A DNA stretch of 64,000 bases from Candidatus Spyradenecus sp. (GCA_045535075.1 JAZSKX010000001.1:67317-131316); one strand, 5' to 3'; shown: positions 13,246-13,674, counted from the first letter of the stretch. The notes: generated by a model not told the origin, from the letters alone. Numbers and translations: made by a program.

Positions 13246-13350
13246 AGGGTGAGGAATAAAACTTTTCTTTAATAAAAATAGATATTAATGTGGTAGCCTT
13301 TATTGCTCGCGATTACGTCCGCGCGGGCAAGTGAAACAGACACACGGACC

Positions 13351-13431
13351 AAAACAAAAAAGAAACCGTGAGAGTGGCGACTCTCACGGTCTTATTTGGA
13401 AAGGAGCTTCCAAATGGAATCATTAATCCTG
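13351..13431 (-). ncRNA. Candidate antisense antitoxin RNA (copy 2), ends approximate
   Basis: Minus-strand TTGACT-16nt-CAAAAT inside the peptide ORF; perfect 11-bp hairpin ACCGTGAGAGT-ggcg-ACTCTCACGGT (13365-13390) followed on the minus strand by TTCTTTTTTGTTTT. Confidence 0.55.
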
Positions 13432-13476
13432 GTTCTCATTTTGATTCTACTTATTTTGGAGTCAATAAAGAAATGA
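13414..13476 (+). CDS. 20-aa hydrophobic peptide MESLILVLILILLILESIKK, candidate type I toxin (copy 2)
   Basis: Manual translation; strong SD GAAAGGAG enclosed in hairpin ATTTGGAA-aggagc-TTCCAAAT; paralog of 3137..3199. Confidence 0.8.
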   Translation: MESLILVLILILLILESIKK

Positions 13477-13480
13477 GGTA

Positions 13481-13516
13481 AAAAGCCCTCGCCGTTTTTC
13501 TTCGGCGGGGGCTTTC
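13481..13516 (+). terminator. Intrinsic terminator for the small-peptide mRNA (copy 2)
   Basis: aaaagccctcgccg-tttttctt-cggcgggggctttc. Confidence 0.7.
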
Positions 13517-13674
13517 CCAAAACGGATTTGTATGTTTGTGTTTGCTTTCGTGATTTTAAAATGTGTGGCGTTGCGATTCCCGTGAAATAAGCCCGTTGCG
13601 TCGGCGTGAAATTATTTGCATATTTGGAGATACGTTCTGAGGCTTTAAAACTCTGTTTTCGGCGAATTTAAACC

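Follow-up and report, generated by a model that had tools for sequence, protein, structure and literature searches.

A putative type I toxin-antitoxin module in the uncultured gut genus Candidatus Spyradenecus

Introduction

Type I toxin-antitoxin systems have been characterized in few lineages, and they are invisible to gene callers. In the account of Fozo (2010), the characterized loci are limited to some enterobacteria, Vibrionales, and Firmicutes, and callers of open reading frames (ORFs) often miss them. AapA1/IsoA1 has been described in Helicobacter, and Helicobacter and Campylobacter extend the known hosts (Arnion 2017). Here, we describe a module of about 210 bases from a 64,000-nucleotide stretch of the genome of Candidatus Spyradenecus sp. 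(GCA_045535075.1, JAZSKX010000001.1:67317-131316), which we will call the window. The module combines a conserved gene for a hydrophobic peptide of 20 residues with a structured leader. Two copies are in the window: copy 2, which is our main subject, and copy 1.

The closest described system appears to be AapA/IsoA, in which, according to the T1TAdb preprint, the antisense RNA is wholly contained in the mRNA and extends over the start of the ORF. As presented in that preprint, the antisense RNA overlaps the ORF only in AapA/IsoA and Ibs/Sib, and in Ibs/Sib it covers the whole ORF; the antisense RNAs of Hok/Sok and Ldr/Rdl are fully overlapped by the toxin mRNA and lie 5' of the ORF without overlapping it. 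The layout of our module is closest to AapA/IsoA because its predicted antisense RNA falls within the mRNA and covers both the translation start and the 5' part of the ORF, a layout predicted for all 16 unique units of the family. Also, like AapA/IsoA as described from Helicobacter and Campylobacter, the module is a chromosomal, multicopy gene for a hydrophobic peptide with a highly structured mRNA. Unlike AapA/IsoA, it encodes a peptide of 20-21 instead of 30 amino acids, and the host is a gut bacterium of the PVC group (Verrucomicrobiota/Lentisphaerota), not an epsilonproteobacterium. Processing of the 3' end and a 5'-3' lock on the Shine-Dalgarno (SD) sequence, both of which are features of AapA/IsoA, are only hinted at here. 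No Pfam or Rfam match indicated homology to AapA/IsoA, the presence of AapA/IsoA models in those libraries being unconfirmed.

Like Ibs/Sib, the module has a very short and extremely hydrophobic peptide (Ibs peptides have about 18-19 amino acids) and a putative cis-encoded antisense RNA. Other shared traits, as Ibs/Sib is described by Fozo (2010), are the several diverged copies per genome, with a divergence that is thought to limit cross-talk, and being missed by ORF callers. Unlike Sib, which is described as spanning the whole ibs ORF, the RNA predicted here starts at codon 6 and runs upstream, its promoter is inside the ORF, and the copies are dispersed instead of tandem. Neither Ibs homology (four peptides, Pfam) nor the Sib RNA family (window, Rfam) was found. 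Hok/Sok and Ldr/Rdl resemble the module in having an antisense RNA within the toxin mRNA that, as these systems are described, acts on the leader and the translation start, but this RNA does not reach the ORF and they have no homology to the module. Their toxins are longer than the peptide described here.

The module is real, and it is probably a member of a genus-restricted, multicopy family that functions as a type I toxin-antitoxin pair. We infer this function from the architecture and from a family that is multicopy, patchy, and dispersed, with one decaying copy. The family is new; the kind, type I toxin-antitoxin-like, is already known. We would give roughly even chances to a fuller account, in which the PVC group would have its first type I family, confined to one uncultured gut genus; the antitoxin promoter would lie in the toxin's codons, so that the -35 box and the C-terminal residues are mutually constrained; the antitoxin terminator would double as a hairpin of the toxin's leader; and three peptide classes with diverged single-stranded targets would make the pairs private. 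If real, the family extends the type I class to the PVC group and offers a compact test case, as the promoter, terminator, and coding sequence of both partners overlap.

Results and Discussion

A compact module with the same parts in each copy

A preliminary description, made from the window's sequence, placed a candidate type I module at 13300..13520. We located the small open reading frame (sORF), both leader hairpins, the A-rich tract, the enclosed SD, and the 3' hairpin within these bounds. Copy 2 spans 13303-13515 on the plus strand, and its parts, with the putative promoter upstream, are as follows:

13261-13294, plus strand: putative promoter region of the sense transcript, weak and uncertain (TATTAAT at 13283-13289, TGTGGT at 13289-13294)
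13303-13330, plus strand: P1, the 5'-terminal hairpin of the sense mRNA (TTGCTCGCG, a 10-nt loop, then CGCGGGCAA)
13351-13364, plus strand: A-rich tract; read on the antisense strand, the U-tract of the antisense terminator (terminator scan call on the minus strand)
13365-13390, considered on both strands: P2 hairpin, with arms ACCGTGAGAG and CTCTCACGGT
13392 to 13363, minus strand: P2 as called by the terminator scan, with tail CTTTTTTGTT
13394-13415, plus strand: ATTTGGAA-aggagc-TTCCAAAT, which encloses the SD in copy 2 (from the sequence)
13398-13406, plus strand: SD GGAAAGGAG (read from the sequence)
13414-13476, plus strand: sORF of 20 amino acids, MESLILVLILILLILESIKK, with a grand average of hydropathy (GRAVY) of 1.94
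13438-13465, minus strand: antisense promoter TTGACT-16-CAAAAT, within codons 9-18 of the sORF (promoter scan)
13353-13431, minus strand: predicted cis-antisense RNA and candidate antitoxin, about 78-81 nt, spanning codons 1-6, the ATG, the SD, and P2
13482-13515, plus strand: T, the 3' hairpin of the sense mRNA, with a weak U-tract and the tail TTTCCC

Copy 1 is at 3104-3302 on the minus strand and has its parts in the same order:

3271-3302, minus strand: P1 hairpin (sequence and stem listing)
3217-3244, scan call on the plus strand: P2 hairpin, the antisense terminator, with tail CTTTGTTTTA
3199 to 3137, minus strand: sORF of 20 amino acids, MESIIVVLILILLLLESIKK (from the sequence)
3148-3175, plus strand: antisense promoter TTGACT-16-CAAAAT (promoter scan)
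3182-3253, plus strand: predicted antisense RNA of about 72 nt (fold z -4.76)
3104-3133, minus strand: T hairpin (stem listing and scan)

The two copies align with E = 3e-20 when the genome is searched against itself with BLAST, and together they form an 88-nt inverted repeat that is 78% complementary. Their peptides are identical at 17 of 20 positions, instead of the 16 that had been reported; the accompanying statement that all changes are among I, L, and V is correct (positions 4, 6, and 14). A third and more divergent copy lies on another contig of the same genome (G000:C12, ~56240-56440, minus strand). It has an unchanged P2 stem, an A-rich tract, a P1-like hairpin, and a different peptide (MINTNQLILILILIFLILVSR). 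This genome (G000, 1.95 Mb in 18 contigs) thus has three copies. The arrangement of the parts is observed directly.

The P1 loop of copy 1 contains an AUG, but we rejected an ORF beginning there, as the corresponding triplet in copy 2 is ACG.

The peptide is under purifying selection

Intact sORFs fall into three classes. Class 1 peptides follow the pattern ME[STLP]x[IVT]x[VI][LP]ILILLxLESIKK; class 2 peptides have five or six variable N-terminal residues followed by LILxLILxFLILVSR; and class 3 is MITLIVVLMLLLLLILSIRK, from the single unit G014:C174. The peptides of all three classes are hydrophobic (GRAVY 1.7-2.5) and have a polar or charged C-terminus.

Among 11 unique class-1 sORFs, the numbers of variable columns at the first, second, and third codon positions are 9, 3, and 14, and the summed ratio of nonsynonymous to synonymous polymorphism (pN/pS) is 0.17. 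The class-1 stop codon switches between TGA, TAA, and TAG at a fixed position, and the leucine codons vary between TTG, CTG, CTA, and TTA. Purifying selection on the peptide is shown directly by these data. An AAGGA-type SD is present 7-12 nt upstream of the ATG in all aligned units. With 20-21 amino acids and its own SD, the sORF is a small (<60 amino acids), hydrophobic, membrane-type ORF with its own translation signals, and it looks to be translated.

Four of the peptides had no significant match in Pfam; PsbT (E = 0.48) and DUF6954 (E = 0.23) were far below the cut-off. Also, an exact look-up of six peptides in a collection of ~15 billion proteins found none of them.

The two leader hairpins covary and are selected on different strands

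The preliminary description reported covariation of the leader hairpin between the two copies, and a larger alignment bears this out. In 17 model-aligned sequences, 95.6% of the cells are paired, whereas shuffles have 75.7% and 0 of 500 attain the observed level. Compensatory changes occur in 13 of 16 pairs (both sides changed in 8 of 10 pairs of P1 and 5 of 6 modelled pairs of P2). These numbers overstate independence, because the sequences are related and were aligned by fitting them to the structure of the model. As a control, sliding the partners by 1-3 columns gave 33-44% pairing. Stem listings for 16 units include eight distinct P2 stem sequences, all of which are helices of 10-13 bp. 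Covariation of the hairpins, together with the pN/pS, the distribution of variable columns, and the switching of the stop codon at a fixed position, upholds the earlier proposal that both peptide and RNA structure are under selection. The other predictions of the preliminary description that computation could address were borne out as well.

A covarying hairpin can be assigned to a strand from its imperfect pairs: what is G·U on one strand becomes an A·C mismatch in the complement, and an excess of either type reveals the strand under selection. We counted both on the sense strand. (The 16 units are those that are unique: G002 and G013 have identical units, which were counted once, and the degenerate copy in G016:C1, described below, was excluded, while it was retained in the model alignments.) P2 has 0 G·U and 10 A·C, which leaves the antisense strand as the only one where it forms a clean helix. 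For T the counts are 11 G·U versus 0 A·C, and for P1 they are 19 versus 7, or 17 versus 4 without a spurious hairpin in G014:C174; since G·U exceeds A·C, P1 is a sense-strand structure. For P2 versus T, Fisher's test gives 2.8e-6 by cells, or 0.002 if we count 6 and 5 distinct stem lineages by our own grouping. This assignment of strands is a direct result of the counts, and the test is reusable for uncultured organisms, as it requires no RNA data.

On the antisense strand, P2 is followed by a U-rich run in all 16 units. This is the reverse of the AAAACAAA tract that the preliminary description noted as kept between the copies, and we can now describe it as the U-tract of an antisense terminator. 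The terminator scan called an antisense terminator with a T-run at P2 in both window copies. So P2, whose role had been given as a leader hairpin, is indeed a hairpin, but the antisense strand appears to be the one under selection, with P2 as the intrinsic terminator of the antisense RNA. It can form in the sense 5' untranslated region (UTR) as well. The upstream element that had been reported as kept is P1: its arms, TTGCTCGCG and CGCGGGCAA, form the hairpin at 13303-13330, and P1 is present in copy 1 too.

Two other observations concern the leader. The loop of P2 (positions 13376 and 13379) reads GGCG in G000 and CGCC in G016, in G007, and in a contig from X20, one of four sequencing runs that gave DNA contigs only. 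Since the stem is perfectly palindromic, each allele equals the exact reverse complement of the other over the entire hairpin; either a hairpin inversion or two substitutions would account for them. Also, the part of the sense leader that separates P1 from the A-rich tract contains, at 13346-13350, a conserved motif, G[GA][GA]C[UCA], which is mostly GGGCU. The motif is outside the predicted antisense RNA, and we found no pairing partner to account for it.

A conserved putative antisense promoter within the sORF

Within the 550-nt region around each window copy, the sole promoter-like site in the promoter scan was the antisense TTGACT-16-CAAAAT, which had already been noticed as kept in both copies and which proves to be conserved across the three peptide classes. 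In 15 of the 16 units the -35 box reads TTGAC[TA], and in the other it reads TTGAAA; the spacer is 16 nt in every unit; and the -10 box is CA[AG]AAT in 15 units and CAACAT in one. A conserved CA lies ~7 nt downstream of the -10 box.

The -35 box and the spacing are kept even though the overlying residues vary by class (E-S-I, V-S-R, or L-S-I). Codon choice points in the same direction. All 16 units use TCA for the serine at the -35 site, which is the rarest serine codon in the genome (6%), and all five class-2 units use AGA or AGG (AGR) at the -35 box, which together make up 5% of arginine codons. We also made 5,000 synonymous recodings of each peptide with the genome's codon usage. The recoded promoter equalled or surpassed the observed one in 1.3-3.5% of trials for the class-1 units and the C12 copy, and in 0.06-0.08% of trials for three class-2 units. 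These results directly support a codon-independent constraint that keeps the putative antisense promoter in the sORF.

We predicted the antisense RNA from the promoter, the conserved CA, and the terminator. The predicted RNAs are 72-81 nt long and cover codons 1-6, the ATG, the SD, and P2, and this layout holds in all 16 units. Three of them are predicted to fold into a 5' stem-loop plus the terminator, with z scores of -4.8 to -6.1; for copy 2 the fold is -30 kcal/mol (z -5.6 to -6.1). By its sequence signals, then, the module contains an antisense RNA gene, with a promoter and a terminator in both window copies that are kept in 16 of 16 units, and a cis-antisense RNA is probably made from it.

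Cognate duplexes between antisense RNA and mRNA would be perfect over 72-81 nt, with -143 to -151 kcal/mol. Non-cognate pairs within G000 reach -65 to -85 kcal/mol, and their longest perfect runs are 6-13 nt; the run of 13 nt is the shared P2 stem, which is itself paired inside each RNA. As had been reported, the SD of copy 2 is enclosed by ATTTGGAA-aggagc-TTCCAAAT (13394-13415), and the spacer between SD and ATG diverges between the paralogs. This fits the earlier suggestion that a divergent target region insulates the paralogs from cross-talk.

A model for the module

Our model, in which both transcripts, repression by pairing, and toxicity are inferred, is as follows. A sigma-70-type promoter would give a sense mRNA of ~210 nt that consists of P1, an A-rich linker, P2, an AAGGA-type SD, the gene for a very hydrophobic peptide of 20-21 amino acids with a polar or charged C-terminus, and the terminal hairpin T. 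A promoter on the opposite strand, in codons 9-18 of the sORF, would give a cis-antisense RNA of 72-81 nt that extends over codons 1-6, the ATG, and the SD and terminates at the reverse complement of P2 and its U-tract. Pairing of this RNA with the mRNA would hide the ribosome-binding site, and the duplex would probably be marked for cleavage. The antisense RNA would be expected, from its complementarity, to block synthesis of the toxin. The peptide would be produced only when the level of antisense RNA is low, and it would then insert into the inner membrane and arrest growth.

The sense transcript

Several units have near-consensus promoters that end 6-8 nt before P1 (TTGACA-17-TATGAT, TTGACA-17-TATACT, or TTGATA-17-TATACT), and P1 is therefore the 5'-terminal hairpin. 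At 13289-13294, G000 and G016 have TGTGGT while G007 and the X20 contig have TATAAT, with three G/A differences (13290, 13292, and 13293). In copy 2, the promoter of the sense transcript may have lost strength, or it may have shifted to TATTAAT at 13283-13289.

At the other end of the transcript, T may act as a 3' stabilizer as much as a terminator. RNAalifold hinted at a 5'-3' lock of the SD with the C/U-rich 3' tail, which we did not accept because any C/U-rich tail pairs with a purine-rich SD.

The family was found in only one genus

To describe the distribution of the family, we used a covariance model of the leader only, from P1 to the ATG, which was built from 14 sequences. Across 137 genomes of the taxonomic family, the model matched strongly at 17 places (E <= 3e-19), distributed over 9 genomes of a single genus. 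The same run gave one place that is weak but true, G014:C174, which brings the total to 18 places, and 10 of the 19 genomes in the genus have at least one; the earlier suggestion of a multicopy family thus holds both within G000 and across the genus. There was no true match among the 118 other genomes of the family, or among the 146 other-genus genomes of a 151-genome sample of the order. These 264 other-genus genomes are the combined scope of the search, and we take the result as "not found in those searched," not as "absent." A more sensitive run against the 19 genomes of the genus added only false matches.

We rejected the weak matches at G014:C65, G006, G004, G005, G019, G227, G017, and G009, as well as those at G015:C11, G015:C2, G018 (two), G010:C22, G013:C40, and G003. 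These lack the sORF and resemble terminators or coding sequence. The tally of true and false matches covers the weak rows of the more sensitive run other than those that added no new locus (G016:C8, G018:C2, G015:C12, G014:C46, three reverse-strand P2 half-hits).

Because the model has no columns beyond the ATG, the sORFs downstream of its matches are an independent check. An intact hydrophobic sORF of 20-21 amino acids lies downstream of 16 of the 17 strong places and of the weak true place, and the ATG and SD are kept in 17 of 18 places. The exception is G016:C1:35672-35789, where the leader is intact (83 bits), the ATG is replaced by ATC, the usual stop is lost, and GAT replaces GAG over the -35 box. 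This is probably a decaying copy.

With BLAST, relatives appeared in 8 of the genus's 18 other genomes, while 22 genomes from other genera gave 0. A scan of 185,579 species genomes for the class-1 sORF pattern found 10 loci, all identical to units already known from the genus; these loci are in metagenome-assembled genomes (MAGs) labelled Candidatus Spyradenecus, Opitutales, or Verrucomicrobia, with one labelled Bacteroidaceae. The same pattern had 0 matches in a metagenome scan, and collections of plasmids and phages had no match to the module. The hosts belong to the PVC group and are MAGs from animal guts that carry the label Candidatus Spyradenecus or Opitutales; NCBI places the genus in Lentisphaerota.

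Full-text literature searches on Verrucomicrobia, Lentisphaerae, Akkermansia, and Spyradenecus, judged at the level of the search results, turned up no treatment of a type I system in these bacteria.

Alternative explanations

Several points weigh against a type I toxin-antitoxin pair. Both RNAs are predicted from sequence signals. The antisense promoter matches the consensus at only 9-10 of 12 positions, its -10 box begins with C, and the class-3 unit (G014:C174, with CAACAT) fails the criteria of the promoter scan. On the sense side, the promoter scan gave no promoter in copies 1 and 2, and T has a poor U-tract, so the 3' end of the mRNA would be ill-defined. Kinship among the sequences inflates the shuffle statistics and the cell counts, and the lineage counts depend on our own grouping. 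Finally, no relative of the peptide was detected among known toxins, and its toxicity is putative.

The most serious alternative is that the peptide is a harmless small membrane protein, such as a regulator or a subunit of a membrane complex, which is tuned by the cis-antisense RNA without being a toxin. Our evidence concerns architecture and selection, not toxicity, and a pN/pS of 0.17 would suit a protein with a specific partner at least as well as a generic membrane poison. However, the genus carries the gene as diverged paralogs, with 3-4 per genome in some genomes and none in 9 of 19. The units lie in at least 10 distinct flanking contexts, with no constant partner gene, and one copy is decaying. 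Such habits suit type I toxin loci and not a housekeeping subunit, so we consider a harmless membrane protein unlikely.

A second alternative retains the small protein and its structured leader but has no antisense RNA. In that case, the nucleotides of the sORF would serve a helix in the mRNA, and P2 would be a hairpin of the 5' UTR. RNAalifold does predict a helix in the sense mRNA within the sORF (13435-13477 and relatives), in which CUYAUUU of codons 8-10 pairs with AAAURAG at the stop codon. The third base of Leu-8 covaries with the stop (CTC with TGA, CTT with TAA), and both sides have changed in 4 of 12 sequences. There is also an inner helix, in which TTGATTC pairs with GAGTCAA. This predicted structure could explain part of the nucleotide constraint on the sORF, which is another point against the toxin-antitoxin pair, and the imperfect -10 box is compatible with having no antisense promoter at all. 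But the bias of P2 (10 A·C versus 0 G·U on the sense strand) is wrong for a sense hairpin, and P1 and T have the opposite bias. Every unit has a U-tract after P2 on the antisense strand, and the -35 box and 16-nt spacing are kept across classes with different residues. We regard a gene without an antisense RNA as quite improbable.

The third alternative is an Ile/Leu/Val leader peptide with an attenuator for downstream genes. As in the leaders of amino-acid operons (such as His_leader), a short ORF dominated by a few amino acids is followed by a hairpin: I, L, and V make up 70% of the peptide. In copy 2, the next genes (an iron-dependent alcohol dehydrogenase and an aldehyde dehydrogenase) could be the targets, as the first of them is co-oriented with the module; on its other side, copy 2 has a gene for a transporter of the major facilitator superfamily (MFS). 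Among Rfam families, His_leader was the best near-miss (E = 0.13), but its score of 22.3 bits is far under the gathering score of 49. Nothing in the Rfam E-value scan of 13250-13560 came near the threshold and no antitoxin family appeared there even at E <= 10; the gathering-threshold scan of the whole window found 3 tRNAs only. Unlike in amino-acid operons, there is no constant co-oriented operon downstream. Copy 1 is flanked by a divergent gene of unknown function on one side and, downstream, by a convergent gene for a PEP-CTERM protein, and the gene downstream of the C12 copy is convergent as well. The flanking genes vary, and none is a gene for branched-chain amino acids. These convergent genes and varied flanks exclude a leader-peptide attenuator as a general explanation and support the module as a stand-alone gene. 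Also, the order of the residues and the polar ends of the peptide are conserved, which attenuation does not need. An attenuator is thus very improbable.

Least probable of all is a non-coding dispersed repeat (similar to REP or MITE elements, or to paired terminators) with a chance open frame: the module is short, hairpin-rich, dispersed, and not annotated by gene callers, but its substitutions track codon positions, its stop codon varies at a constant position, nearly every place retains the SD and ATG, and the three classes of peptide are all hydrophobic.

Other repeated sequences in the window

Two other kinds of repeats are found near the module. The octamer CGGGAACG (complement CGTTCCCG) is the commonest 8-mer in the genome, with 5,159 occurrences in 1.95 Mb (~2.6 per kb); by our arithmetic, ~60 would be expected from the genome's size alone. 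The window has 86 on the plus strand and 91 on the minus strand, for instance at 13203-13240. The octamer also makes up the arms of the terminator that follows the MFS transporter gene (GTTCCCG..CGGGAAC, followed by T7). It looks like an iterated motif similar to uptake sequences or to HIP1.

The other is an intergenic repeat of ~90 nt, which occurs at 11543-11629 and 19502-19602 with 77-81% identity (AGAGCTTAGAGGTA.. and ..CCTCTCATCTCTAAGC). One copy is directly upstream of the MFS transporter gene (11667-13178), and the repeat may be a shared leader or regulatory element.

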